From positions 1 through 31,555 of IMG/VR virus record IMGVR_UViG_3300005805_000295: a stretch of 31,555 nt of DNA. One strand, written 5' to 3'. Position 1 is the first letter of the stretch; every line of letters begins with the position of its first letter. Below the pieces are notes generated by a model. The model was not told the origin of the DNA and made no database searches. It was given only the letters and a program-made list of their open reading frames with translations. The position numbers were made by a program, and so were the translations under genes. This document shows, one piece after another, positions 97-30,329 of the stretch. Source of the stretch: a virus. Its lineage: Duplodnaviria; Caudoviricetes.

Positions 97-3000
97 ATGC
101 CCCAACTGTAACTACCAATACACCAACTGTAACTACCAATACACCAACTGTAACTACCAATACACCAACTGTAACTACCAATACACCTACTTCAACAGCA
201 AATCAAGGTGCAATATCAGCGGCGCTAGAAACAATTGGTAATAACACAAATACCTCCACAAGCGGGAGCGCAGTAATGTCAACAAAAACCGATTTTCCAG
301 TGACTGTAAAAGGTATTACCTATAACTGGGATACAAAAGGAGATGCAGGCGATAAAGCTGACGCATATAACAATATGCTTAGGAGCGGCGCCACTCCTGC
401 TCAAATTAAAACTGCACTAGAAAACGCCTATAACTCAGTATTTAAACCTACTACGCCGGTGTCTATACCTGACTCGGATTGGAACGCTCTTACTTCTCTT
501 GCTGCTAGTAAAGCAACGGATAATATTGTAAACAACGCTACTGGTGCAAATACCGGTGCAAATACCGGTGCAAATACCGGTGCAAATACCGGTGCAAATA
601 CCGGTGCAAATACCGGTGCAAATGCTGGTGCAAATGCTGGTGCAAATGCTGGTGCAAATGCTGGTGCAAATGCTGGTGCAAATGCTGGTGCAACTGCCGG
701 AACAACTACTGGTACAACTACTACGACCACAAACAAAGGGCTTACTTCACTAGTACCGTTTGGAAACCCAGCTTACACATGGAATACTGAAGGAACGTTA
801 GGAGAAAAACAAGCACTCGTCCAAAAGATGAAGGACGACGGTTTTACTGTGTCTCAAATCCGAAACGAAATTAGCAGGCTAGAACCAGACAGATCTGCCT
901 TAACTGAATCTAACTTTAAATTACTTGGGTTGGAAACGGTACTACCCAAACCTGCTGATACGGCCACAACAACCACTGCAACCGCCGCAGACATTCCAAA
1001 CTCAAGCAAAATCTATAACATCGGTGGATTGCAGTGGAACAGTGGTGCGAGCTTAGACACTAAAAAAGGTTATGTCCAAGACTTGTTAAGGACGTACACA
1101 CCGGATCAAGTTAAGTCAATCATCAGGTATAACGACCCAGCAAATGCCACTGATGAAAACTTTGCACTTCTAGGTTTACCTGCGGGCGCTTCTAAAGCTG
1201 CCACACCAACTGGGTTTAGCGCACTGTATAAAGCTCCTACTGAACTAGCACCGTCGCGTGGACTAGGTGCGCTTGTTTCTCAATATGTAGGGCAACCCAA
1301 TTTAAGAACGATGACTCGCTCTATTGGGCCTGAAGGTATGGGTACGCTAACTGAACAGCCTTCAGCAGCTCTTTCTTATGCAACGCGTACTGGCGGTATT
1401 GGAGAGACTCAGTACTTTCAAAACATACGTGATTTCTTTGCAGATCCTAAAGTTACTCCGCAAGATGCCGCTTATCAAATGTCTCGATACAACATCCCTG
1501 AGACAGACATACAGGCTGCTATCGGTTTGACACCTACACAGTTCTTTGCTCAAAAACAATTAGCTGCGGATAGACAAGCTGCTTTGGACGCTGCAAAGCA
1601 AACCAAAGTTGAAAAAATTGAAGCTTTACCCCCTCCTTCACTAACTTATGGTGGAGCACCTATTTCTTTAGGTACAAATACGGGAGGCGCAGGTAATACT
1701 GTCGGTGGGACAGGTAATACTGTCGGTGGGGCAGGTGCTACGGTTGGTGGAGAAGGATCTTCGTTTAGTGGTAGTGCAGGCGGTATAGGTGTTGGTGGTG
1801 GCGTTGGTGGCGTTGGTGATGTAAGTGACGTGGATAGTGGCGCTAGCGACAACGACTCTATAGTTAGTACGATTTTAAAATCAATAGTCGGACCCCCCCA
1901 AGAACCTGCGCCTATTAGACCAGCGGGTACTCCAGACACACCTCCACCAGCGCCCCCTACCGAAGATAATAGAGCAGGAGGACCGATAGCTCTTGCCGAA
2001 GGTGGTAAAGCAAAAATGGCTGGGGAACAAAAGTTTTCGTTTGAAGACTTTGGACTTACTCCCGCTACGGTAGAACTAGCTCGTAAGCAGGGTGTTTTTG
2101 ATGTGCCGCGTAATGTTTTATTTGGCCCTGAGCTTAAAGGCTTAGAAGCTGCTGCTTTGGCAAACATGAGTCCTGAAGAACAAGAAGCGGCGTTACGTCA
2201 TTTGATGCTTAGACAAGGATTAACAGGGGCTGAATACTTTCCAGCAACCATGTTTAAATCAGCAACTCCGGCAAGAATGTTTGATGAACGCGGTAATAGA
2301 ATTCGCCCTCTATACCAATACGCCGAAGGCGGTGATGTCGGTCGAGGGCTGGGCAGTATCGCTATGAAAGGCTATGCTCAAGAGATGGCACAGAAAGGTC
2401 GGTTTGGCGACACGATGCTAGCCCACATTAGCCCCGAAGAAGCTCAGATGCTACAAGCCGCAGGTGGTGCGGGTACTATAAACCCACAGACTGGCTTGCC
2501 TGAGTACTTCAGTTGGAGGAAAGTTTTAAAAACTGTGGGTAAGGTTGCACCTTTTGTTGTGCCGTTCATCCCTGGGTTAGGTCTTGCTACTAAAGCACTA
2601 ATTTCTGGTGTTGCTGGTGGGCTTGGTGGACAGAAAGGCTTTGACTTTAAACGTGGTCTAATGTCAGGCTTGATGTCTTATGGCATTGGCAGTGCCGCAC
2701 AAAACCTCGGACTTACAAGCGGAGCCGCACCTACAGGTGCAGAGGCAGCTAGCGCGGGGGCTATAAATCCTGCTAGTTCGTTACAAGCGGGAATGGATTT
2801 TCCAACTACCGGGGCGCCTACTATTTCTGCTGGGGTTGACTTACAACCTTACACGCCCCCAACTGATGTTGGGTCTATGGATTTTTCTTCCCCTCCTCCA
2901 TCTACGTCTTTACCCACTACTCAACCTTCTGCGCTAGACACCATTAAAGACAAAGCAGTTGCTGGATTTGAAAAATTTCAATCAGTGGCAGATCAACCCA

Positions 3001-3485
3001 TAAGCACACTGTATGCGGTTCCAATGGCTGTAAGCGCAGCCGGTATGGTGTCTGAGAGCGATAAAGCTGCACAGGCTATGGCAGCGCAGGAAGCGGAAGA
3101 AGAACGTAAAAGGCGGCGTGGAGCAGAATTGTTTGCCGAAACACTTGGACGTATACCATTCCGTGCAGCTTCAGGTGGTATGGCTGGGCTTGGCGCACTT
3201 GCTGCGGGGGGTGCCACTGGGCCTGCTAACGAACCACGCACAATAAATGGCGCAGGGGATGGCATGAGTGATAGTGTGCCTGCTACCATCGAGGGTGTTC
3301 AAGAGGCGCGTCTTGCCGATGGTGAGTTTGTGATCCCTGCCGACGTTGTTGCAGATCTAGGTAACGGCTCCAGTAACGCTGGGTCTAAGAAACTTTACGC
3401 CATGATGGATCGAGTTAGGAAGGCTCGACATGGCACAACAAGACAACCGCCCGAAGTAGATACGGGTCGTTTGATGCCTGCTTAA
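3..3485 (+). CDS. Large low-complexity putative internal virion/ejection protein, 5'-truncated (true start lies upstream of the window)
   Basis: The frame of ORF 276..3485 is open back to position 3 (VEPY repeats, PTVTTNT repeats, then ...SGSAV-M276). C-terminal blocks GRFGDTMLAHISPEEAQML...GTINPQTGLPEY and INGAGDGMSDSVPATI...LADGEFVIPADVV resemble conserved virion proteins of uncultured podophages. First gene of a tightly packed + operon. Confidence 0.75.
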   Translation, partial: VEPYVEPYVEPYVEPYVEPYVEPYVEPYVEPYAPTVTTNTPTVTTNTPTVTTNTPTVTTNTPTSTANQGAISAALETIGNNTNTSTSGSAVMSTKTDFPVTVKGITYNWDTKGDAGDKADAYNNMLRSGATPAQIKTALENAYNSVFKPTTPVSIPDSDWNALTSLAASKATDNIVNNATGANTGANTGANTGANTGANTGANTGANAGANAGANAGANAGANAGANAGATAGTTTGTTTTTTNKGLTSLVPFGNPAYTWNTEGTLGEKQALVQKMKDDGFTVSQIRNEISRLEPDRSALTESNFKLLGLETVLPKPADTATTTTATAADIPNSSKIYNIGGLQWNSGASLDTKKGYVQDLLRTYTPDQVKSIIRYNDPANATDENFALLGLPAGASKAATPTGFSALYKAPTELAPSRGLGALVSQYVGQPNLRTMTRSIGPEGMGTLTEQPSAALSYATRTGGIGETQYFQNIRDFFADPKVTPQDAAYQMSRYNIPETDIQAAIGLTPTQFFAQKQLAADRQAALDAAKQTKVEKIEALPPPSLTYGGAPISLGTNTGGAGNTVGGTGNTVGGAGATVGGEGSSFSGSAGGIGVGGGVGGVGDVSDVDSGASDNDSIVSTILKSIVGPPQEPAPIRPAGTPDTPPPAPPTEDNRAGGPIALAEGGKAKMAGEQKFSFEDFGLTPATVELARKQGVFDVPRNVLFGPELKGLEAAALANMSPEEQEAALRHLMLRQGLTGAEYFPATMFKSATPARMFDERGNRIRPLYQYAEGGDVGRGLGSIAMKGYAQEMAQKGRFGDTMLAHISPEEAQMLQAAGGAGTINPQTGLPEYFSWRKVLKTVGKVAPFVVPFIPGLGLATKALISGVAGGLGGQKGFDFKRGLMSGLMSYGIGSAAQNLGLTSGAAPTGAEAASAGAINPASSLQAGMDFPTTGAPTISAGVDLQPYTPPTDVGSMDFSSPPPSTSLPTTQPSALDTIKDKAVAGFEKFQSVADQPISTLYAVPMAVSAAGMVSESDKAAQAMAAQEAEEERKRRRGAELFAETLGRIPFRAASGGMAGLGALAAGGATGPANEPRTINGAGDGMSDSVPATIEGVQEARLADGEFVIPADVVADLGNGSSNAGSKKLYAMMDRVRKARHGTTRQPPEVDTGRLMPA
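102..185 (+). repeat. 21-bp tandem repeat CCAACTGTAACTACCAATACA x4 (encodes PTVTTNT)
   Basis: Exact copies at 102, 123, 144 and 165. Confidence 0.95.
543..686 (+). repeat. 12-bp tandem repeat: GGTGCAAATACC x6 then GGTGCAAATGCT x6 (GANT x6, GANA x6)
   Basis: Read directly; in-frame coding repeat. Confidence 0.95.
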
Positions 3486-3495
3486 GGAAACAGTT

Positions 3496-4647
3496 ATGAG
3501 CACTACGCAAACAATTACCACCGCAGCCGAAATACCAAAAGTCCTAGAGCAGTTTTATCTAGGAACCGGCAAACAAGGCGAAACAGGCTATCAGCCAGGA
3601 CTTATTGGTCGTGGAATTTCTGAGATATTCCCAAGCGGCAAAACAGGTGCCGAGGCATATCAAGAGCAGTTTAAAACGCTAGAGCAAGCGGGATTGTTGG
3701 GTAGAGGCAGCGTTGCTGGTCTTTCTCCATTTCAAGAAGCCGTAGGTACACAACTTGGCGTAATGAGCGCAACTCCAGGCCAGTACGCACTTGGTACGCA
3801 GGCTGGGCAGCAAGCGGCATCAGGACTGCAAGCGTTACAAAATTATCAAAGTATGGGGGTAGCTGGGCCGCAGCTCACTACCTTCCAGATGGACCCTGCT
3901 CGACAATTCAGTTCCGCAGAAGCACAAAACTACATGTCACCGTACATGCAGTCGGTTGTAGATCGACAGCAGGCAGCAGCACTTAAATCTGCTAGAGAAG
4001 CGCAGTTAGGACAAAACCTTGCTGCGGCGCGTCAAGGCACTTACGGGGGTTCAAGACAAGCAATTCTCCAAGGAGCAAGGGAAGCAGGACTCCAGTCAAC
4101 ACTGGCAGATATCCAGGCTAAGGGCTTGCAGTCTGCGTTTGAAAATGCTCAAGCTCAGTTTGAGCGGGATCGTGCAGCACAAATGGGGATTGGTAGTCAG
4201 AACTTACAGGCAGCACTTGGGGTTCAGCAGCTCGGTGCAGGTCAAAACTTACAAGCGCAGTTAGCTAATCAAGCAGCACAGCAGCAAGCAGCACAGACCC
4301 AACTTGCTGCGGCACAAGGGCTTACTGGACTTGCAGGCCAGTTTGGTCAGCTTGGTACACAACAACGTGCGGCAGAGCTTGATACGCTTAAGACACAAGG
4401 TGCGTTTGGTGATTTACAACGCGCTATTGAGCAACAGAAGATGGATGCTCAGCGTCAACAACTTACAGATCAATCACAATATGGCCTGACTCAAGTGGGC
4501 CAACTCTCTAATCTGTTGCGGGGTATCCCGATGCAGGGTTCGACACAAACGGCAACTACGCCCCCACCGAGCTTTGCCAGTCAGTTGACCGGCTTGGGCT
4601 TGACAGGGATTGGGCTGTATAACATGCTTGGCGGGGGTCCAAAATGA
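3496..4647 (+). CDS. Putative internal virion / DNA-transfer (pilot-like) protein, Q/A/G-rich
   Basis: 383 aa with AAGGA RBS upstream. Has a YMSPYMQSVVD motif, a long QA-rich helical region and a hydrophobic Gly-rich C-terminus (LTGLGLTGIGLYNMLGG), as in podophage ejection proteins. Confidence 0.65.
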   Translation: MSTTQTITTAAEIPKVLEQFYLGTGKQGETGYQPGLIGRGISEIFPSGKTGAEAYQEQFKTLEQAGLLGRGSVAGLSPFQEAVGTQLGVMSATPGQYALGTQAGQQAASGLQALQNYQSMGVAGPQLTTFQMDPARQFSSAEAQNYMSPYMQSVVDRQQAAALKSAREAQLGQNLAAARQGTYGGSRQAILQGAREAGLQSTLADIQAKGLQSAFENAQAQFERDRAAQMGIGSQNLQAALGVQQLGAGQNLQAQLANQAAQQQAAQTQLAAAQGLTGLAGQFGQLGTQQRAAELDTLKTQGAFGDLQRAIEQQKMDAQRQQLTDQSQYGLTQVGQLSNLLRGIPMQGSTQTATTPPPSFASQLTGLGLTGIGLYNMLGGGPK

Positions 4648-6593
4648 GCCTTCGGACACTAGAAAAAGCGGTTAATAGGACCGCAGATCGTACGGTTGGT
4701 GACATTGTTGCCACTTATGGGTCTAACGTGCAACGCCTGAAGATGGACGCTGCTGCGGGAAAGATTGACCCCACGACAGCACTCATGGCGATGATGACGA
4801 TCCAACGGATTGTCGCTGCAAACACTCAACCACCGTCCGGTACGACAGTCGCTCAAGACACTGGAATGGCACCGCCCCCACAACAAATGGGCATGTCTGC
4901 AATGGCTCCCCAAGGCGCACCCGGTGCGTCACCCGGTGCGAACCCGGTTCGCATGGCCTACGGCGGTCAGGTTGCCATCAGTAATAACCAAGTGCCGTCA
5001 CCTGCGATGGAGCGTGGCATCTCCGGCCTACCCGTGCCTGACAACATGTTTGACTATGCTGATGGCGGCATGATTGCATTTGCTGGTGGTGGGGACGTAC
5101 AGCGGTTTCAGAACCAAGGTGCGGTAAACCTTCCATCGATCTATGGCACTTATCAGGCTAATGCACCAAAATTTGGGTCTAGTACTGCCACACCTCCAAG
5201 TGGGGGGTTCTTAGATTATCTTGCTTCTTATCCAGAAAGACGTAGAAAAGAAGCCGCTGAAGAATTAGCTAGAGTAAGAGAAGCTTTAACAAATCCTAAT
5301 TTGCCTGGGATGGCTAAAGCTGAATTAGTTACTAAACTAAATTTTTTACAAAAAGAATTAGGTGAAGCTGCTCCTCCTACTAGAGAAAATACTCCTATAC
5401 CAGATGTTCTTAAAGAAATGGGGGTAAAACTAGCTGAACGTCGTGGCGAATTTATAAATTCACCTGAAGAAATAGCTAAAACATTAAATCAACCAAAACT
5501 TGACCCTGTAGCAGCTTCGTTGGAAAGGTCAAAGCAAGAAGCAACAAAACAATCTACGGTTAGTTCACCAGGGGTTAGTTTTACTCGACCAAAAAGTGAA
5601 CAAGAGCATTTGAATTTTCTTAGAGGGCCACAGCCAGAATTCGGTGAGGATAAATTTTCGCCTAAAGCCTTTGCTGAAGCAGCTACTTCTGGATTTACCG
5701 TACCTAAAGAATTAAGTTTAGAAGAAGTAGTCCAACGCCAAAAAGATGTAGATGAAAAAATGGGGGTTGATAAAGACTTCTTTAAGAATATGCAAGGGCG
5801 TTTAGATACGATGCGAGAGCAAGCCAAAACGGATAAATCAGAAGCCGCAAACTTACGGATCATTGAAGCGGGGCTTGGTATTCTTGGCGGCACTTCACCC
5901 TATGCTTTTGTCAATATTGGTAAAGGTGCTTCTGAAGCTGTTAAAGGGTTTGGTCAAGATCTTAAAGACTACCAAAAAGCTCGCCGCGAACTTGATAGGG
6001 CTGAAATGGATCTTGCTAATGCTGAGCAAGTTTATAAGAGGTCAAGATCAGACAAAGCTTTAGCTACTCTTGAAAGCAGAGAGCGTGATGTAGTTACAGC
6101 AAAAAATACTGCTGCTCAGGCGTATTCTTCAGCTTATAGCGCAGGACAAAATGTTGTTGAGAACCGTGATCAAAGAGCAGCGGCGCAAAGAGGGGAAGCT
6201 GCCAAACTTGCCCAAGGTGATAGACAACTTTCAATACAAGAACAGCAACTTGCTGCTACTATAGCTTCGCATAGAGATCAGATCGAAGCTAGAAAAGAAC
6301 AAAATGCTAGACAATATGGCTTAGATAAAGCTTCAGCTATAGAAAAAGCAATGGTATCTGCTACTAAGTCTATTGACACTCAAATTATTAATTTAACTAA
6401 ACAACTAGAAGATCCTACTTTAGGTATGAGTATGTCGCCAGAAGTAAGGAAAGAAAAATATAGTAAATTAGAACAACTATATAAAGACAAAAATAATACT
6501 GAACAGCAAGTAGAAACTCGTATGAGGATGGAATTTGATAGTAAGAATAATTCAGGTCTTGTTTTGCTTGGGTCTAGATCCGCTAATAAATAG
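4644..6593 (+). CDS. Putative internal virion protein
   Basis: 649 aa; ATGA overlap with the previous gene; AxGG motifs (MAYGG, YADGG, FAGGG); coiled-coil-rich C-terminal half. Confidence 0.65.
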   Translation: MSLRTLEKAVNRTADRTVGDIVATYGSNVQRLKMDAAAGKIDPTTALMAMMTIQRIVAANTQPPSGTTVAQDTGMAPPPQQMGMSAMAPQGAPGASPGANPVRMAYGGQVAISNNQVPSPAMERGISGLPVPDNMFDYADGGMIAFAGGGDVQRFQNQGAVNLPSIYGTYQANAPKFGSSTATPPSGGFLDYLASYPERRRKEAAEELARVREALTNPNLPGMAKAELVTKLNFLQKELGEAAPPTRENTPIPDVLKEMGVKLAERRGEFINSPEEIAKTLNQPKLDPVAASLERSKQEATKQSTVSSPGVSFTRPKSEQEHLNFLRGPQPEFGEDKFSPKAFAEAATSGFTVPKELSLEEVVQRQKDVDEKMGVDKDFFKNMQGRLDTMREQAKTDKSEAANLRIIEAGLGILGGTSPYAFVNIGKGASEAVKGFGQDLKDYQKARRELDRAEMDLANAEQVYKRSRSDKALATLESRERDVVTAKNTAAQAYSSAYSAGQNVVENRDQRAAAQRGEAAKLAQGDRQLSIQEQQLAATIASHRDQIEARKEQNARQYGLDKASAIEKAMVSATKSIDTQIINLTKQLEDPTLGMSMSPEVRKEKYSKLEQLYKDKNNTEQQVETRMRMEFDSKNNSGLVLLGSRSANK

Positions 6594-6601
6594 AGAAAGC
6601 T

Positions 6602-9600
6602 ATGCGTATATATGAAATTCAAGCGCCTAACGGACGTATTTATGAAGTTCAAGGCCCTGACGGTATATCGCAAGAACAATTGTTTAGCTTTGTTCAGTCA
6701 CAGATATATAGCGAAGACTTAGAAAGGCTTAAAAAAGAAAGGGAAAAATCTCGCCAAGAAAGTTTTAAACCTGTTGATGTGCAGCCTATAGAAAAACAAT
6801 CTGTTCTACGTCAAGTAGCAGACGTACCTATTGGTATAGCACGCGGTGCCGCGCAGGGTATCCGCATGATTGCGGATGCTTTTGGGCCTGATAATGTTGT
6901 ATCGCAAGCCTACCGTGGCATGGAGGATATGCTCGGTGAGTTGTACTCGGCACAGGCTAAGAATGACCAGAAGAAGATAGCCCAGATCATGAAAGATGCC
7001 GAGGATAAAGGCATCGGTGATCAGCTTGTTGCAGCGGTCCAAGCTTTTGCAACGGCTCCTGTTGATATGCTTTCTCAAGCTCTTGGCACTGCCGCACCGA
7101 TTGTTGTCGGTGGTCTTCTTGGTTCAGTTGCCAGATTAGGAGCAGCAGGTGTCGGTGCAGTACAGACTGGACTCGGCGGGGCAATGGGTGCTGGTACTGT
7201 CAAAGGCACGATTTACGAAGCTGTTAAAAGTGCGCTCACAGATTCTGGGGAAGATCCCAAAGTTGCCGAGCGTAAAGCTCGTGAAGCTCAGTCCTACACA
7301 GGAGAAAACTGGGGCCAAGTTTTAGCGGGTACGGTGCTTGGTGGTATAGCCGGTAAGATCGGTGTTGAAGATCTTCTCCTAAAACGCTTTACTCAGAAGG
7401 CAGCTCAAGAAGGAGTTGAGGCTGCGGCACCTGGGTTATTACGTCGTTCGGCTACCGCAGGGGCTACTGAAGCTGTGCCTGAAATGGCGCAGGCTGGTCA
7501 AGAACAATTAGCTGAGAATGTTGCACTGCAACGCGCAGGCTTTGACGTTCCTACGTTTAGAGGGGTTGCAGGCCAAGCAGCTCTTGAAGGTTTGGCAGGT
7601 GCTGGACTTGGTGCAGGGCTGGGTGCATTGCCTGGGGCTACGCCACGTGACCAACAAGCTGAAGAATTTCGTCGCACGTTAAAAGACCAAGAACAAGAAA
7701 CAACGACTGAAGAAAGCGAAGCTGAGAAAAAAGCTAAGAAGCTAAAGCTTGAGGATCTTGACCCTACACAGGTTCAAACAACGCTAAAAGATTTAGAGAG
7801 ATTTACGATTGACCCTGAAGCCCTAAAAGAAAGGGGGGTCAAGAATGAGATTAAAAATAGTCTTCGTCTTTTAGGATTACCTGAAACGCAGGTTAAAGGT
7901 TTTTTACGCGCCAAAAATAACCAAGAATTAGTCAACGCACTGACTAAATTTTTGACGCCTAAACCAGCTACAGAGGAGAAACAAGGTGAGCAACTTGACC
8001 AAGTTGACCAACAGCCAAGTGGAACAGGCACTGATCTATCTGTCAGACCCGGAGGTGAAACCACTACCGGAAGAGCTGCACCACCTTCTACCGACGGAAT
8101 GGGGAGTGCTACAGATGCTTCTCAGCAGGTTGGAGTGGGAGCGCAACAACCTGACATTGCATTAGCCCAACAACAAGCCCCTGCAACTCAACAAGGAACC
8201 CTCAGTGTCGTTACGTCCCCTGAAGCCCAGCAAAAAGAAGAAGCAAGAGAAGAAGCGCCTGCTCAAGGAGCAGCAGTGGCAGGTGCCGCTGCAACCACAA
8301 CCGAACCCGTTGTTGAAACTAAACCAAAAGACTTAAGCGATAAAAGAGCTGCGGCTAAAGCTGCGCTTGAAGCTAGAAAAAAAGCTGCAAAAAATAAAGG
8401 TGCTGTTTCAATTGGGGCTAATGAAGAAGCTCGCTTAAAAGAAATTGAAGAGACCCTGTCTGAAGAAGAGCTAGATTTTGTTAATTTAGTAAGAGATGAA
8501 TTAAGGCAAAACAAACCAATAGACCCAGAAGATTTTAATTTTGCGTCAGAAATACTAAGACCGTTTGACCAGACAAGATACGCTCAGCAACAAGATCGCA
8601 TAGCAGCCCTTTATGAAGACGCTGCCGCAAGAGGATCTAAGAGTTTAAAAACTCGTGGGTTGCCTAAACTGTTCCGCGATTTAACGACTGAAGAAATAAA
8701 AGCTGGCGAAGAAAAAGGTGGCAAATTAACGGCTGATGAACGTGAAGTTTTTGTGGATGCCTTGGGTAAAGATCTGACCCCAGCAGGCGCTACCAAAGCC
8801 TTAGCTAAGTTATCTGATTACCGCGACAAGAAAAAATCTTTTACTGATGAAGCAGGGGCGCGAGCAGATATAGTAGCTAATTCAATAGCAGCTTACGAAA
8901 TAAATCGTAGGATTGAATCAAAACTACGTAAATTAAATTTACCTTCGTTTGTTGAACTCACTGAAGATGAACAACAAGCCTATCTTGGCGAAGCCCCTCT
9001 TAAAGGTAAAGTAACGGGCGAGCAAGTAATAAAAGGTTTTGATGCGATACAAAGCTACAATGAATCTTTAGGTACTGAAGAAGTAACTAAAGAAGAATTA
9101 GATGAAGGTAAAGCAGAAACTGCATACGGTAAAGCTCAACGTGAGATCCAAGCAGAAAAACTTGGTATGGCTGGTACTGAATTACCTACTGATATTTCAG
9201 AAGCAGCTAAACAGGGTAATTTAAAAACAGTAATTGATTACTTAGCTAATTTAGCTAAAGGTTATCAGAAAAAGCAACCGTATACAGGCACTTCGTTTTT
9301 ACAAGCTGTTACTGGGGGTACTCGGTTATCCGGCGCTATTAATAGAGGTATTGCTTCACTTATACGTGACTTAGGTGGTATCGACACAAAACTTAGATAT
9401 ATACCCACACTATCTAAAGACCCAGCTACTCGCGCAGAGGCAGCGCGTCTTTTGAGATCTGAAGGCAAAGCCAGCACATTTATTGCGGAATACGACCCAC
9501 GCACAGATACTCTTACTATTACTGATAGGGCATTAAATGAAACCGCCCTGATGCATGAACTTGTTCATGCTGTCACCGTTAAGATGATGTATAAATATCT

Positions 9601-12600
9601 TACGGGTAATAGAGCGGGCATGTCAGATACTCAAAAACAAGCTGCTCAAGACATAATTAAAATATACAACGCGGCGAAAAGAAACCCTGGTATAAAAGGT
9701 AGTTTTCCAAACGCGTTTGAAAACGTGTATGAGTTTATATCTTACGGATTGTCTGATCCTAATATGCAGACCGCCTTACGTAAGATGCCTTCGCCCATGC
9801 CTACAGCAAAATTACCAAGTACATGGAGTACTTTGGTTGATAGGATAGCGGACTTGTTGGGTATAAAAGGGCTTTTAAAAACCCTACGTATAACGCCAAA
9901 AGAATTTGTACCAACTAGAAAACGTGAGTTGTATGACAGCATTCAAGCTTTAAGAGATACTGTTGAAGAAAGAGTTGAACCTTCAATAGAAAACGTAGAG
10001 GCACTTGAAGAGTTAGAAGCTATTGCTGAAGAAGAGTACCAAATACCAGACATAGAAGTTCAACAAATTGAATATGGTAAAAGTGGGCGTAAGAGAGGAG
10101 AAAAACGTCCTAGTGAAAAACCACAAAAAATATCTAAACAAGAATATGAATCAAGAATAAATCGTCTTGTAGATGCTGCCATTATTGCTGGTAGAGGTGA
10201 TACTTCTGCCACGCAGACTGACGTAGCCAACATAGAACTAAACGAACAAAATGCTTTGTTTGACCTTATGGCAAACTTTGAACAAATTCTTAGTGTGCCG
10301 GAAGCCATACCAGAATTTGATAAGTCTTTGCAAATAACCGATGCTGAGGCTGATAAAACAATTAAAGAAACAGGCGACCGTTTTGTATCAAAGATGGAAG
10401 CTGAAAAGCCAACACTTGCCACAAAAACTCGTGCGCTTAAAAATGCCTTTAATAAAGACGGTCGTACAAGAATTATTGAACAAGCACAGAACTATAGGTA
10501 TAGAGTTGATCGTATAAATAATATTTTACGTAGAGTTGGTAAATTAATATCGTTTGGCAAAGACCAAAACAATTTAGGTACAGCTTTAGCTACGTCAGCA
10601 GGCCGCGCAGAAAACGCATACCAGAAATATTTTTACACAGACATCAGTAAGGCCAACGACATGTTGGCCGATTTAGCTAAGTCTATGGGCATCACAGTAC
10701 AAGATGCTTTAGCTCGCTTACACATGTATGCGATTCACTTGCATGACCCAGAGCGTAGAAAAATTAAGTATCTGCGGGAAGTGCCTTTAGCTGATAACCA
10801 AGCAGTTAGAGACCGTGACAGCATCATGAAAGACGTAATCAAAATAGACCGAAATAAGTTAGGTGATGCTGCTGCTAAACAAGAAGCTCAAAAACTACTT
10901 GTCAAATTAGAAGCTCTTGTTGCTGCCAAAGGAGTCAAGACTTCTCCACTGTTTGACATGAATAACGAAGCCTACAACACGCTAGGCCCATACAGCCTAG
11001 ATCAAATAGAAGCATTTGGCCGCGCATTTACAGGTGGAAATATAGCTAAGGCTAGTAAACTAATAGACACACTTAAAAAGATTGAACAGACAACCATTGA
11101 TCTTAATAAGAAGTCAAATTACTTTTCACCGCCAGTGCAAAACTTAGTTGATTTCTATGATTTTAAATTTTACTTTCCATTCAAAGGTAGACCTGATACT
11201 GGACCAGCCGACTACCAATTAGATTACTTTGGGCAGAATGTCGGTGGCGATTTGCAAGACAAACAAGAAGCTTTTGATGGCCGTATTAGTGATGCGGATA
11301 ATCCAATCCTTAACATCCTAAACGAGGCTAGTAAATCTGCTATGCGACTTGGTAGGCATGAAGCTGGGGTCACGCTTTCTATTAAGAATCTTATAGACTC
11401 AAAGATAATTAGTGGTAAGTCGGTTAAGACTGTTACGTTTGAACAAAGGTTTGATAACAAACTTAATGAAGAACTTAAACGCGGTGTAAAAAACATATTT
11501 CATTACTTGCCAGACGGTAAGATTCAGATTTATGAAATAAATGATAAGCAATTACTTGAGGCTATCAAGCGACCCCTACGTGATGACAATTGGTTTGTTG
11601 ATAGCCTAGGCAAGGCAACTAGCATGTTTGGGCAAATGCATACCCGCTTTAACCCAGCGTTTGCTCCAATGGACTTTCTGCGTAACTTATTCACCTATGC
11701 AGGGGTGCTTGGTGCTGAGACTTCGGGTAAGCGTGGGTTTCAGGTAATGACTGAAATGGCTAGTATCTTAGCCAAGAACGGTTTTACTAAAACTGCCAAA
11801 TACTCGCTTGCATTTAGTCGTGGTAATGAAGCTGAGATGGCTCGTCTTGCCAAGACCGACCCTTTCTATAAAGACCTTAGAGAGTATTACGAACTAGGCG
11901 GTCGAGTGGCATACCTGCAAGGCATAACCATCAAAGATAATCTTACTGATGCAGTCAACGCGGCAGACCAAAATGGTGTCATCAAGTCTTTGAGCGGGGC
12001 AAATAAATTCTTTGATGCTTGGCTCGACATGTTTGAGATGTCTACTCGCATTGCCGCTTACCGTACGATGCGGGATCAGTTTGTAGCTGAAGGTATGCCC
12101 ATTGAACAAGCAAAAATTGAAGCTGTTGCTTACGCTAAAAACCTTGCTAACTTTGAAAAGACAGGCATCAGGGGTAAAGAACTTGGCGCGTTTTTCATGT
12201 TCTTCAGGCCAGCAGCCACAGGCGCAGTACGCGCTTACGAAGCCTTATCTCCAGCCCTTGACTATTTCAAATCCGACGAAGAACTCAAAAAGATAGTTAA
12301 GAAAGAAGCCGAAGACGTTGGTAAGTTAACGGACGCTGACATCAACAAGCTTGTCAAAGAATATCGCAATAGAACTAAGAGTGCTGCGGCTGTGTCAACA
12401 ACTTTATTCGGTGTTGGTGCGGCTACGTTTATGATGGCAGCAGCTATGGCTGGCGACGACGATGAAGGTAGGAACAAAGTTCTTACTGATGACGCGGCAC
12501 GGTGGGTACGTAATGCTCGTTTCAATACAGGCATACAGTCAGGGGGCAAAGATATTGTTTTACAGATACCTTGGGGATTTGGCCCTGGCGCTTTTGCATC

Positions 12601-13426
12601 TGTAGGCGCTCAGATCGCAGCCTTTGTATCGGGTTCACAGTCGTTTGGTCAGTTTATCAATAACGTCTTAGATGCTGGTGCTGAATCCTTCATGCCTATC
12701 CCGATCTCTAAGATCAACAAGTTTGAGCACCCTGTAGAAGCTGCCCTTGATTCCGTACTCCCCAGTGCATTGAAACCTCTCTTTGAGTGGGCGATGAACA
12801 TGGACGGCCTTGGCCGCGAGATCTACAACAACAGGCAGTCACGAAATAACGATGCCTACACAGGCGGGGATAACATCCCAGAGTTTTTCAAAGACGCTGC
12901 TCGTTTGTTGTACAACATGTCAGATGGCAAGATCGATGTATCTCCCAACACGATGTACTTCTTCTCCAATAACTATCTTGATGGTGTGTCACGACTTGCA
13001 TCATGGAGCTACAACACGGCGCATACGATTGCCGGTAACCGAGACTTTGACTTCAAGACAGATACGCTTTTGCTTGACGCCTATCTGAAGGCTCCATCTA
13101 ACTACGATGCACGGCAGTTCAGTGAAGTTGAGAAAGAAATCAAGAACTTGGAGCGGCGCTACCGTGCCTATACTTCAAGCGGCGATGCGGAAAGAATAGC
13201 TGACTATTTCCAAGAACATCCTTATGACAAGTCAGTCATCGACTACTACAATAAGTTCAACGGACAGCTAAACAAATTGCGTGAACTTGCCAACAAGACA
13301 AGGACTAATACAAACCTCACGATCAAAGAGAGGCAGGACCAAGTCCGTGTTTTGATTGATAACCAGAACAAATTAAAATCCGCCTTTGTGCAGTCCGTTG
13401 CCGCGTACGGTATTGAGCCAGACTAA
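6602..13426 (+). CDS. Large polyvalent protein (zincin-like HExxH metallopeptidase motif + LPD38-like C-terminal domain), probably virion-delivered
   Basis: 2274 aa. AEYDPRTDTLTI...ETALMHELVHA carries HExxH. The C-terminal LQIPWGFGPGAF...LKPLFEWAMNMDGLGREIY pattern resembles LPD38. N-terminal YEIQAPNGRIYEVQGPDG is followed by Gly/Ala-rich hydrophobic segments. Confidence 0.8.
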   Translation: MRIYEIQAPNGRIYEVQGPDGISQEQLFSFVQSQIYSEDLERLKKEREKSRQESFKPVDVQPIEKQSVLRQVADVPIGIARGAAQGIRMIADAFGPDNVVSQAYRGMEDMLGELYSAQAKNDQKKIAQIMKDAEDKGIGDQLVAAVQAFATAPVDMLSQALGTAAPIVVGGLLGSVARLGAAGVGAVQTGLGGAMGAGTVKGTIYEAVKSALTDSGEDPKVAERKAREAQSYTGENWGQVLAGTVLGGIAGKIGVEDLLLKRFTQKAAQEGVEAAAPGLLRRSATAGATEAVPEMAQAGQEQLAENVALQRAGFDVPTFRGVAGQAALEGLAGAGLGAGLGALPGATPRDQQAEEFRRTLKDQEQETTTEESEAEKKAKKLKLEDLDPTQVQTTLKDLERFTIDPEALKERGVKNEIKNSLRLLGLPETQVKGFLRAKNNQELVNALTKFLTPKPATEEKQGEQLDQVDQQPSGTGTDLSVRPGGETTTGRAAPPSTDGMGSATDASQQVGVGAQQPDIALAQQQAPATQQGTLSVVTSPEAQQKEEAREEAPAQGAAVAGAAATTTEPVVETKPKDLSDKRAAAKAALEARKKAAKNKGAVSIGANEEARLKEIEETLSEEELDFVNLVRDELRQNKPIDPEDFNFASEILRPFDQTRYAQQQDRIAALYEDAAARGSKSLKTRGLPKLFRDLTTEEIKAGEEKGGKLTADEREVFVDALGKDLTPAGATKALAKLSDYRDKKKSFTDEAGARADIVANSIAAYEINRRIESKLRKLNLPSFVELTEDEQQAYLGEAPLKGKVTGEQVIKGFDAIQSYNESLGTEEVTKEELDEGKAETAYGKAQREIQAEKLGMAGTELPTDISEAAKQGNLKTVIDYLANLAKGYQKKQPYTGTSFLQAVTGGTRLSGAINRGIASLIRDLGGIDTKLRYIPTLSKDPATRAEAARLLRSEGKASTFIAEYDPRTDTLTITDRALNETALMHELVHAVTVKMMYKYLTGNRAGMSDTQKQAAQDIIKIYNAAKRNPGIKGSFPNAFENVYEFISYGLSDPNMQTALRKMPSPMPTAKLPSTWSTLVDRIADLLGIKGLLKTLRITPKEFVPTRKRELYDSIQALRDTVEERVEPSIENVEALEELEAIAEEEYQIPDIEVQQIEYGKSGRKRGEKRPSEKPQKISKQEYESRINRLVDAAIIAGRGDTSATQTDVANIELNEQNALFDLMANFEQILSVPEAIPEFDKSLQITDAEADKTIKETGDRFVSKMEAEKPTLATKTRALKNAFNKDGRTRIIEQAQNYRYRVDRINNILRRVGKLISFGKDQNNLGTALATSAGRAENAYQKYFYTDISKANDMLADLAKSMGITVQDALARLHMYAIHLHDPERRKIKYLREVPLADNQAVRDRDSIMKDVIKIDRNKLGDAAAKQEAQKLLVKLEALVAAKGVKTSPLFDMNNEAYNTLGPYSLDQIEAFGRAFTGGNIAKASKLIDTLKKIEQTTIDLNKKSNYFSPPVQNLVDFYDFKFYFPFKGRPDTGPADYQLDYFGQNVGGDLQDKQEAFDGRISDADNPILNILNEASKSAMRLGRHEAGVTLSIKNLIDSKIISGKSVKTVTFEQRFDNKLNEELKRGVKNIFHYLPDGKIQIYEINDKQLLEAIKRPLRDDNWFVDSLGKATSMFGQMHTRFNPAFAPMDFLRNLFTYAGVLGAETSGKRGFQVMTEMASILAKNGFTKTAKYSLAFSRGNEAEMARLAKTDPFYKDLREYYELGGRVAYLQGITIKDNLTDAVNAADQNGVIKSLSGANKFFDAWLDMFEMSTRIAAYRTMRDQFVAEGMPIEQAKIEAVAYAKNLANFEKTGIRGKELGAFFMFFRPAATGAVRAYEALSPALDYFKSDEELKKIVKKEAEDVGKLTDADINKLVKEYRNRTKSAAAVSTTLFGVGAATFMMAAAMAGDDDEGRNKVLTDDAARWVRNARFNTGIQSGGKDIVLQIPWGFGPGAFASVGAQIAAFVSGSQSFGQFINNVLDAGAESFMPIPISKINKFEHPVEAALDSVLPSALKPLFEWAMNMDGLGREIYNNRQSRNNDAYTGGDNIPEFFKDAARLLYNMSDGKIDVSPNTMYFFSNNYLDGVSRLASWSYNTAHTIAGNRDFDFKTDTLLLDAYLKAPSNYDARQFSEVEKEIKNLERRYRAYTSSGDAERIADYFQEHPYDKSVIDYYNKFNGQLNKLRELANKTRTNTNLTIKERQDQVRVLIDNQNKLKSAFVQSVAAYGIEPD
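7986..8165 (+). CDS. Putative overprinted 59-aa protein nested in the +1 frame of the polyvalent gene
   Basis: GAGGAG (7973-7978) lies 7 nt before GTG. Translation MSNLTKLTNSQVEQALIYLSDPEVKPLPEELHHLLPTEWGVLQMLLSRLEWERNNLTLH*; the host frame here is linker-like. Confidence 0.55.
   Translation: MSNLTKLTNSQVEQALIYLSDPEVKPLPEELHHLLPTEWGVLQMLLSRLEWERNNLTLH
8205..8336 (+). CDS. Putative second overprinted 43-aa basic peptide in the same +1 frame
   Basis: AAGGA (8193-8197) lies 7 nt before GTG. Translation MSLRPLKPSKKKKQEKKRLLKEQQWQVPLQPQPNPLLKLNQKT*. Confidence 0.35.
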   Translation: MSLRPLKPSKKKKQEKKRLLKEQQWQVPLQPQPNPLLKLNQKT

Positions 13427-24433: not shown

Positions 24434-24963
24434 ACCTGCCTCATCAAAATCCACCACACCTTGTGTTACCTAACGCCACCGTGCCTGCCCTAACAAACCG
24501 CACCAAATAAAACCGAACCGAACCTTACCTAGCCTGCCTTATGAGACCTTACATATAACAACTAACCCGACCTCACCTATCCTGCCAAAACGAACCGCGC
24601 CGAACCATACCCAAAGACAACCTACCGAACCGAGCCTGCCCGACCGAACCATATAACGCCGAACGAAATACCACCTAACCTTGCCTGCCTGACCGCATCA
24701 AACCACATCCCTCCTTACCCCATCACACCCCACCTGACCTGCTACACCAAACCCGACCCGACCTCACCTCACCCGACCTCACCACGCCTGCCGAACCATG
24801 CCCCACCTAACCTAAATACACCGCACCAGACCACACCCAACCGCACCTTGCCTGCCTCATCAAACCTTACCACACCCCACCTCACCAAGCCTGACCGACC
24901 GTACCATGCCTGCCCCACCGAACTCCACCGTACCAAGCCTGACCTTACCGTACCCGGCCTGCC
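24434..24963 (-). ncRNA. Array of 10 units GGCA+(GGY-NN)n: candidate guide-RNA array of a non-CRISPR RNA-guided (VIPR-like) system
   Basis: Eleven GGCAGG delimiters (CCTGCC on + at 24435, 24484, 24533, 24581, 24635, 24684, 24738 variant, 24787, 24851, 24909, 24958) with spacings 49,49,48,54,49,54,49,64,58,49 = 4+5n (two units 1 nt short). 73 of 97 pentamers start with GGY. Confidence 0.85.
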
Positions 24964-25427
24964 TAAACCTTCTCTAACTTGTTGCGTAGGACTAAGACTT
25001 GTTCAAGCAATGCTTCCATCTCATCCACCATATCAAGGGCTTGCGCTACGTTCTTTGCTCTTCTTAGCGCACCAACAATGAGTGCAACTTCATTATTAAT
25101 AACTTCTCTTGAAAGATCTTTATTACTACGTACTTTGGTAAGTGTGGTGTAACCTTGCTCGTTACCTTTTTTGCTTGGATCACGTAGATAGAAAGGTGCT
25201 TTAATAACAACTTTCTCTGTGGTTACAATCACGCGCACAGAAGCAATTAGATTACGTGCGGTATCAATCCAGTGCTTATGTGCTGCGCTCTCAAGACTCC
25301 AGTCAAAGTAGCTATGCAGGGGACTTGATGGGTTCTTAGCATCTGCCACTACGATGTCTGGTGTGAGCGACCCCCCGTGGAGGGCCGCAATCTCCTCTAA
25401 TCTTTTAGCTATTGCGGCTCTATCCAT
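24963..25427 (-). CDS. Accessory protein of the Cas7-like/array locus (LTP..VV..A....SPLH.YFDW family)
   Basis: 154 aa; AGGAG RBS; lies between the RAMP-like gene and the array, and the G of its TAG stop is the first base of the first GGCAGG. Confidence 0.8.
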   Translation of the reverse strand: MDRAAIAKRLEEIAALHGGSLTPDIVVADAKNPSSPLHSYFDWSLESAAHKHWIDTARNLIASVRVIVTTEKVVIKAPFYLRDPSKKGNEQGYTTLTKVRSNKDLSREVINNEVALIVGALRRAKNVAQALDMVDEMEALLEQVLVLRNKLEKV

Positions 25428-25437
25428 GTTTATCTCC

Positions 25438-26205
25438 TTAAGCTACTTTCAAACCACGACGTTTGGTCTCTGTGTTGAACCACGATAGCAACTCTTCAGT
25501 GTCGTCGTCATAAGCCTCTGGGTTCTCCAGTGCTTCAAGTTGCGCTGCCTTGCCGCCTGTCTTAATTATTTCTAAGAACTCAGGGTCATCAGCATCGACA
25601 ATCTTCCAACGACCATAGTTACCTGAACCTTTTTCAGGTCTCCAATCACCTACGCCCATCGTAATACCTGCTGTAGCGAAGAGGTTAGAGATAATCGTAT
25701 GGTTCAGAACCGGACGCACATAAGTGATGTCAACCTTACATGCCCACTTCGGTACGATGGCACGGGTGCGTACATCGGGAGTCTTGTTGATGTCTGCTGA
25801 CCGAGTAATACTTGAGAAGATCTTAGGAACACCAAACAACTCAAGACGTTCATTCTCAACCGTTGTCAGGCGACCAATCTGTGACTTCTTAGCTCCAGGC
25901 ATATCCAGTGCGGCATTGCGTAGCGCACCTTTAAATTGCGTAGCTAACACAGACAACTCAGTTGCATGGTTGCCCTGCGGCATACGGTATGGCGATGAGC
26001 GATACTCAGTCAAAGGATCGTGCTTCATTGATCCTGCTTTCTCAGCAGCAGTCTTGCGACCGGAAGGAAGAAGCAGTTGCTGCCATGCCTTCTCAGGCAT
26101 ACGGTTGCAGATCATTGGTGTAGTTCCTAGTACATGGAACGTAACCGTTTGGGTTTCCATCTCAACGATTTGGATCGTATCTTCTGTTACTTTCTTTGTA
26201 GCCAT
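25438..26205 (-). CDS. Stand-alone Cas7/RAMP-like RNA-binding protein (Vipr-like)
   Basis: RAMP-type order of motifs: beta1 VTFHVLGTTPMI, helix VLATQFKGALRNAA (cf. IPGSSLKGALR), thumb region ending RTRAIVPKWACKVDITY, and a C-terminal Gly-rich loop GITMGVGDWRPEKGSGNYGRWKI. Confidence 0.78.
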   Translation of the reverse strand: MATKKVTEDTIQIVEMETQTVTFHVLGTTPMICNRMPEKAWQQLLLPSGRKTAAEKAGSMKHDPLTEYRSSPYRMPQGNHATELSVLATQFKGALRNAALDMPGAKKSQIGRLTTVENERLELFGVPKIFSSITRSADINKTPDVRTRAIVPKWACKVDITYVRPVLNHTIISNLFATAGITMGVGDWRPEKGSGNYGRWKIVDADDPEFLEIIKTGGKAAQLEALENPEAYDDDTEELLSWFNTETKRRGLKVA

Positions 26206-28200: not shown

Positions 28201-29454
<1,254 letters not shown>

Positions 29455-29462
29455 ATAACCTC

Positions 29463-30329
29463 CTATATCCAATCGTTAACTGCGAGGATGTTGTCTACCT
29501 TCTCCTTTATCTCCTTGCGTACTGATGCACTCTCCTTTATGTCATCGATGCGTACACCTAAGAGTGCACGTTCCAAGTCTTGCCTTGCCTGCTCTAGCTT
29601 GGCATCTCCTGTTATGTTGAATGCAGTAAGCAGTCCGCATAGCTCGTGAGCATTAGTGAGCATGCTCTCGTGATACCGCTTCTTCTTATCTTCTTGTTCT
29701 TGTGGCGAGTCAGTCATACGTGATGAGATATGAATAAGTGTCTCGTGCAACCTACCCCACGCATCCTTCATCGCATCACCTACCCTGCGGTTAGCCTCGG
29801 CTTCGTAGTTAGTTGCTAGCTCTTTGATAACCTCATTGTGCGTATCGAGGATGAAGTGTCCGCTCTGTGGCACAGGGGTGAAGGCATATCTGAAGCTGAA
29901 CTTGCGAGCAACCTCGCTCACGTCTGGATACTCTGAGCGATTGAAGAAGTTACCCAGCTTGAATGCTGCTACTGATACGAGGTTAGGATAAGCATCGAGG
30001 AATGTCTTGACGAGTGCTGTTGTGTTTGCCTCCATCGTATTAAGTTGCGACTTGTAGTTGAAGAAGTTAGCCATCGGCAAGAGCCTTGGGCCTTTCTCTG
30101 CCCACGGCAGGGTCTGCGCTATGTGCCATACGCGAACCTTCGCAATGTAGTCGTTGATGTTCTTGAGTAGTGCTGTACCTGCCATGAGGTTCTTGTTGAC
30201 GCGAGCCGCATCGCTCTCGGTTGCGTTGTTATCGGTGATTACTTTAGCCGACTGCTGTTTGTCTAGTTTGTATGCAGTCCATGCTGAGATGTTGAGTTCG
30301 ACAAGCACTGCGTTGTTTAAGATAGTCAT
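29463..30329 (-). CDS. DUF3150-like protein of the AAA-vWA module
   Basis: AVLVELNISAWTAYKLD, K.LMA, HIAQTLPW...G.RLLP, F....YP; typical position between AAA and vWA genes. Confidence 0.65.
   Translation of the reverse strand: MTILNNAVLVELNISAWTAYKLDKQQSAKVITDNNATESDAARVNKNLMAGTALLKNINDYIAKVRVWHIAQTLPWAEKGPRLLPMANFFNYKSQLNTMEANTTALVKTFLDAYPNLVSVAAFKLGNFFNRSEYPDVSEVARKFSFRYAFTPVPQSGHFILDTHNEVIKELATNYEAEANRRVGDAMKDAWGRLHETLIHISSRMTDSPQEQEDKKKRYHESMLTNAHELCGLLTAFNITGDAKLEQARQDLERALLGVRIDDIKESASVRKEIKEKVDNILAVNDWI

Follow-up and report, generated by a model that had tools for sequence, protein, structure and literature searches.

Staggered VIPR guides of a freshwater phage likely match conserved helicase codons of satellite-like elements

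Which genes do the guides of a phage-borne GGY/NN array read? The question is raised by a 31.6-kb virus record, analyzed here over its whole length (the window), which encodes a family A polymerase, an SNF2 helicase and a DUF927 primase-helicase in addition to the array. Elsewhere in the window are a protein of 2274 aa that carries an LPD38 domain close to its C-terminus (6602-13426) and a VWA/metallopeptidase-type protein with a poly-glutamine run of about 14 residues (28201-29472). The sequencing runs that contain this phage are mostly from fresh or drinking water, and matches in named phages reach at most 35% identity. A first-pass annotation proposed that two neighboring units of the array read conserved codons of a foreign primase-helicase gene, with the wobble positions skipped.

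On the minus strand the locus runs from vipr through a 154-aa gene to ten units that descend from 24959 to 24437 (Table 1). Each unit consists of 9-12 pentamers and a 4-nt linker of GGCA type, and the register moves by one base per linker. Across the eight regular units (77 pentamers), the scaffold has G at position 1 in 67/77, G at position 2 in 63/77 and C or T at position 3 in 76/77, and all four bases are used at positions 4-5 (NN); the conserved GGY and free NN are those of VIPR tracts, which have 9-16 pentamers. Runs of three or more GGY-NN pentamers occur 13 times in the window, 12 of them inside the array. Close relatives have the same array architecture with different unit sets, and gain and lose whole units. 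Two DNA runs yielded contigs that match the array letter for letter over 24550-24792 (X3) and 24587-24777 (X5), a span that takes in most or all of U4-U5; the window may itself derive from either run. Contigs from two RNA runs cover the locus patchily and show neither strand, ends, processing nor transcription. The U4/U5 pair noticed in the first-pass annotation is real and its NN strings are exactly as given there, with the span of 24690..24792 shifted by 4 nt from the units themselves.

Table 1. Features of the guide locus, in window coordinates.
Feature	Position	Strand	Description
vipr	25438..26205	(-)	255 aa, predicted RAMP-fold guide-binding protein; SUSP1 Vipr profile match and fold
Putative vap accessory gene	24963..25427	(-)	154 aa; directly between vipr and array; assigned by position
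Staggered GGY/NN guide array	24437..24959	(-)	Ten units joined by 4-nt GGCA-type linkers
U1-U3	24789..24959	(-)	No match above shuffles on L345
U4	24740..24788	(-)	9 NN pairs; fits arginine-finger region VERDDRRFV of DUF5906 helicases
U5	24686..24739	(-)	10 NN pairs; fits Walker A QGVGKGVFAQ of DUF5906 helicases
U6-U10	24437..24685	(-)	Weak lead for U9 only

The protein encoded beside the array has no family in a Pfam scan. A profile built from 72 homologs of this 255-aa protein returned SUSP1 Vipr (36pp) as its sole PDB match, weak at E 0.0018 over 47 positions, and the top Foldseek matches of its AlphaFold model (pLDDT 81) are type III/VII CRISPR effector subunits (E ~1e-5, TM 0.4-0.5). Its homologs share an invariant glycine-rich stretch at residues 180-198. 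No cas genes were found among the 21 window proteins scanned, and the RAMP-fold Vipr gene lies outside a CRISPR locus. The 154-aa product corresponds to phrog_15946, of unknown function, and has no Pfam family and only unnamed viral clusters as Atlas neighbors; a DNA-binding role may be supposed for it by analogy with the VIPR preprint. The window locus resembles published VIPR (10.64898/2026.04.26.720920, with its companion 10.64898/2026.04.26.720927; see also the further preprint 10.64898/2026.10.21.760802) in its two-gene organization with a RAMP-fold gene, its GGY/NN tracts of 9-12 pentamers, its one-base skip with wobble alignment, its matches on either strand and its abutting, "staggered" units. 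It differs in the distance of its Vipr from SUSP1 Vipr (the profile match above), in having only the 4-nt linker between units instead of a long pseudoknot tail, and in the freshwater habitat of the phage. We conclude that the window locus is a VIPR system with a staggered array.

According to the first of these preprints, the NN pairs specify the target with one base skipped, mostly at the wobble position; its authors suggest that skipping the wobble base defeats escape by synonymous change, and they describe staggered arrays with a 1-nt offset (10.64898/2026.04.26.720920). The mechanism put forward for the window in the first-pass annotation, in which conserved codons are read, wobble positions skipped and synonymous escape blocked, is therefore correct but already known in general form, since the VIPR preprints describe the skip, the wobble alignment and the targeting of satellites.

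Exact patterns gave little. The first-pass annotation had looked for both guides to hit the same primase-helicase gene, an expectation that failed at the exact level: the U5 pattern has no match in the viral collection or in the metagenome collection, and the U4 pattern has one viral match (L001), which lies in an open stretch of 38 codons outside any helicase and was treated as chance. A 16-base core of U5 retrieved 59 viral loci, nine of which are in-frame Walker A sites of DUF5906 proteins of 728-850 aa (three are near-duplicates) with an RR motif 102-105 codons downstream of the Walker A. One shuffled U5 core retrieved 27 viral loci, with no such DUF5906 site on inspection. The comparison with shuffled NN order thus speaks for the U5 reading (9/59 against 0/27), with this one shuffled pattern as the collection-wide control and gap-0 and gap-2 controls run on individual loci. 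U5 fits the nine sites at up to 19/20 and U4 at only 11-13/18. A 16-mer of U4 matched 39 viral loci, of which only two are in-frame DUF5906 sites (17/18), a result that weighs against the helicase reading. A relaxed U5 pattern, scanned over 26/64 parts of the metagenome collection, gave at least 121 loci; among the matches listed, we counted by eye approximately 12 DUF5906 sites and 25 Smr-type sites. Patterns joining U5 and U4 were set at a fixed spacing of 102 codons, the distance between the Walker A and arginine-finger motifs in the helicases, and the 54 viral loci that they retrieved, with a best joint score of 32/38, are all in-frame and helicase-type, as expected from this design. A profile search with the Walker A region found no protein close to both guides (best 50/60 over three guides).

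PF19263 scores above its cut-off in the guide-matched genes, with the Walker A and the arginine finger at the guide sites. DUF5906 has been grouped with D5-type SF3 helicases (PMC9611036), and NrS-1 polymerase's helicase domain (DUF5906, SF3; PDB 6k9c), in which the Walker A is given and Arg556 is named as the finger (PMC7102993), aligns its Walker A and RR finger with the U5 and U4 sites; one guide-matched helicase, P0408, aligns to it across both motifs (E 7e-8). The NrS-1 enzyme is a distant homolog of the guide-matched helicases and not a target. The gene that is read appears to be foreign to the phage, as the first-pass annotation had supposed, since PF19263 is absent from all five related phage records (three of them ≥90% complete). 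The three P-loops quoted there as the phage's own are all present in the window. Against the window itself, U4 scores 13/18 (shuffle mean 13.1) and U5 14/20 (shuffle mean 14.1), no better than shuffles.

The joint pattern retrieved nine loci from the genome collection, among them L345, a contig of 5,670 bp that carries integrase, AlpA, Prim-Pol and DUF5906 genes. To this contig we compared the guides of sister phages. A Vipr scan gave 39 loci, of which the 17 closest, together with the window, hold 128 distinct units; exclusion of units with indels or poor scaffold left 69 distinct NN strings in 45 families for shuffle tests. On L345, 13/69 clade guides reach p<=0.03 (400 shuffles each). All 13 skip codon position 3, and each scores lower with a gap of 0, 2 or 3, so that the alignment of the skipped base with the wobble position and the comparison with gap sizes 0 and 2, both called for by the first-pass annotation, support reading two bases and skipping one; at the level of the gene family this one-base skip holds with mismatches present. 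Two of the 13 guides (U4 and the L005 allele of U5) had helped to find L345, and the fit of U4 there is partly built in, because 10/18 of its bases were in the search pattern. The other 11 were not used in finding the contig and form six groups, with two antisense sites in the integrase (up to 19/22), one in Prim-Pol (17/20), one in the strand that immediately precedes the Walker A of the DUF5906 gene (17-18/22) and two overlapping sites, again antisense, within a 91-aa gene. Just above the threshold come two guides (p 0.035 and 0.047) that are out of phase. Among 164 loci tested alike, five guide families coincide only on L345; 129 loci have none, 30 have one and four have two.

The pattern recurs on elements related to L345. 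U4 fits L366, L367 and L374, all found by protein similarity, at 15/18 in frame. Moreover, the integrase guides fit L366, which has integrase and DUF5906 genes and a 76-aa gene without a Pfam match, at 17/22, and the guide for the 91-aa gene fits a 53%-identical homolog in L374 at 18/24. For L368, L375 and L376 the fits are limited to the pre-Walker guides, with the exception of a single further weak match each on L368 and L375. These elements also show a few out-of-phase matches at p<=0.03, and they are not independent of each other, because they are homologous.

L345 carries the co-located integrase, AlpA and primase/DUF5906 genes that form the defining core of PICMI/PICI-type satellites (PMC10803314). 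It differs from PICMI in belonging to a non-Vibrio MAG, and its 5.7-kb contig showed neither a fis integration site nor attachment sites. The targeted helicases likely belong to small parasitic satellite elements of this kind. Close relatives of the L345 helicase (E<=1e-40) were found in 10/201 genomes searched, all approximately 30% identical save L345 itself, and further searches found them in 4/301 and 1/400 genomes (one genome unscored); plasmid and phage records gave only distant relatives. Compared with four runs that contain the phage, L345 yields short pieces only, a result that counts neither for nor against.

Other features of these contigs were noted in passing. A small Cys/His-containing gene, conserved and itself a guide target, follows the helicase (L345:2-274, L374:1540-1896); no Pfam family was found for it, and its Atlas neighbors are unnamed. 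The U7 family (24583-24636), antisense, adjoins the site of an L009 guide in the 91-aa gene of L345 at only 12/20, and a longer allele of this family reaches 14/22 there. In L374, two ORFs with visible DNA-methyltransferase-like motifs follow the element core (1983-4924) and are presumably akin to defense cargo.

The two window guides differ in how they fit DUF5906 helicases. U4 fits L345 at 16/18 in frame, L249 and L251 at 17/18, and P0408 and P0422 at 18/18 at the protein level, a level at which guide scores presume the most favorable codon and give upper bounds. The window U5 scores 13/20 on L345 (p 0.95) and reaches 19/20 in frame in L045, L056, L057, L097, L111, L182, L202, L204 and L214, genes in which U4 fits at 12/18 or has no close match. 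In 118 parsed homologs of the L345 helicase the best scores are 17/18 for U4, 19/20 for the L005 allele of U5 and 16/20 for the window U5; in 149 further representatives the window U5 reaches at most 17/20. The best single proteins total 34/38, namely P0393 (U5 17/20, U4 17/18) and P0422 (16/20 and 18/18), with the two sites 98 codons apart. U4 beats 60/60 shuffles on both helicase sets. U5 beats all 60 on the wider set, and 4/60 shuffles reach it on the narrower, closest set. With Vipr homologs as a control set, neither guide stands out. U1 and U3 gave nothing above shuffles against two DUF5906 protein sets, and U2 and U8, which were parsed separately, nothing at p<=0.03 on seven loci; a target class can be assigned to 2/10 window guides, U4 and U5.

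The NN string of U4 is identical in L002 and L015, and U5 has two further alleles, in L005 and L016. Differences among the three U5 alleles are confined to motif positions 3, 7 and 9, which are variable across 245 helicases, and positions 2, 4, 5 and 6 in the Walker A are nearly invariant in the same set. On the evidence of sequence, U5 reads as a guide for the Walker A of some DUF5906 gene, and U4 is well tied to the satellite-like DUF5906 helicase family of the L345 type, because it beats all shuffles and fits P0408 and P0422 at 18/18. At the family level, the first-pass annotation is therefore supported in giving U5 a Walker A and U4 the DUF5906 arginine finger as its motif. Its further suggestion that both guides meet on one gene finds no such support, as no gene matches both fully. 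The AT-rich elements of the L111 type were considered as a common target and set aside; they fit U5 but lack the U4 motif. The array of the L016 record (G206) has several units in common with the window, though its Vipr is only 74% identical, and the first 17 kb of this record look unrelated to the window phage, which suggests that the contig may be chimeric.

We favor, with moderate confidence, the explanation that U4 and U5 are staggered VIPR guides which both direct Vipr to DUF5906 helicase codons of satellite-like elements and would thereby silence a replication gene. The unequal fits could instead mean that the guides have two targets, U4 the satellite-like helicase family and U5 the Walker A of another DUF5906 primase-helicase, for example the fused enzymes of 728-850 aa on viral contigs or those of the L111-type elements. 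We regard such a division as possible but rather unlikely. The window U5 does reach 19/20 in L045, L056, L057, L097 and the L111 group, compared with at most 17/20 in the satellite family, and its L016 allele fits five loci of the L111 group at 20/20, although this allele may be unreliable because the L016 record looks chimeric. However, in the satellite family the L005 allele attains as much as 19/20, the loci with the 19/20 fits attract no further guide family, and the Walker A is so conserved that fits of 19/20 arise in several unrelated subfamilies.

The NN string of U5 can also be read as H-G-V-G-N-G-V-L, a motif of Smr domains, and its decoding as a Walker A might then be coincidental or U5 might be aimed at a cellular gene, an idea we consider improbable. 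The Smr-type sites, about 25 of the at least 121 relaxed metagenome matches, fit at 17-18/20 (by eye; Pfam Smr confirmed for 2), but they never reach 19/20, their K or R at position 9 fits no U5 allele, and neighboring and sister guides point to DUF5906 elements. That the region is not a guide array at all but low-complexity or coding sequence, with the codon reading as noise, is barely credible: a 55-aa ORF does overlap part of it (24769-24936) and no exact targets were found, yet the fixed scaffold with free NN, the turnover of whole units among relatives, the adjoining Vipr homolog and the gap-1 and codon-phase signal on L345 largely refute this reading.

If U4 and U5 are indeed guides against DUF5906 helicase codons of satellite-like elements, the course of events may be pictured by analogy with the VIPR preprints: the array would be transcribed together with the operon and processed to RNAs of unit length, Vipr would coat each GGY and present the NN pairs as a filament forms, and the guide complex would bind DNA with every third base flipped out and repress transcription. 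Should the infected host carry such an element, guides against its helicase, primase and integrase genes would limit its excision and replication. The targeted elements may parasitize this phage clade, a helper-satellite relation suggested by gene content only. Guides on conserved codons would persist because synonymous change leaves the match intact, and the gain and loss of units among relatives would fit ongoing turnover. The motifs are probably targeted as conserved DNA and not for their catalytic role, because sister guides also match conserved segments outside both motifs.

The closest published parallel is the phage SUSP1, one of whose guides covers codons of the catalytic core of the F5 satellite recombinase with an 89% mean match and blocks excision (10.64898/2026.10.15.759431). 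There, as proposed here, wobble-aligned phage guides lie on catalytic-core codons of an essential satellite gene, and the authors argue that synonymous change offers no escape. What is targeted there is an excision recombinase with a catalytic serine, in an E. coli satellite that has tape-measure and baseplate genes, whereas by sequence the guides of the window clade fit a DUF5906 helicase, Prim-Pol, a tyrosine integrase and a 91-aa gene. In the main text of that preprint "helicase" and "primase" have no occurrences, and in the main text of 10.64898/2026.04.26.720920 "helicase" occurs once, about accessory genes; helicase or primase targets are likewise absent from the supplementary PDF of the latter and from a literature search, and target tables may list such genes. 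Among the main texts compared, DUF5906 satellite helicases as a target class are not found in print.

The principle is thus published. What is added here is a class of natural targets for a staggered-array VIPR remote from E. coli and Pseudomonas, made up of genes by which small satellite-like elements in lakes replicate and integrate. Translation of NN strings finds target families even without a target genome in databases. If confirmed, the anti-satellite role of VIPR would extend to PICI/PICMI-like elements, and the locus would provide a test case for staggered-array processing and mismatch tolerance. A bolder extension, which we offer tentatively and think more probably wrong than right by a good deal, is that the clade guides are family-wide motif readers near the codon consensus of diverse integrase-AlpA-Prim-Pol-DUF5906 satellites and not copies of one genome. 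In that event a single lytic lake phage would suppress numerous unrelated satellites, perhaps also rival phages that share the helicase, and guide arrays could be translated like peptides to name the unseen competitors of a phage.

The October preprint (10.64898/2026.10.15.759431) describes guides directed at the vipr genes of rivals. In the window, U9 (24486-24534), antisense, fits the first codons in one subgroup of other Vipr proteins, at 15/18 at the protein level in 25/120 homologs (0/60 shuffles, as one of 48 tests); other U9 alleles look a poorer fit to these codons. A set of 30 Mycobacterium and Gordonia phage records (H1-H30) contains distant Vipr homologs, 26-29% identical and annotated as hypothetical. 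In the remoter Vipr loci L024, L031, L032 and L039 the tracts are long, consist almost purely of GGC-NN and are divided into short or irregular units; in L031 and L039 such tracts flank vipr on both sides.
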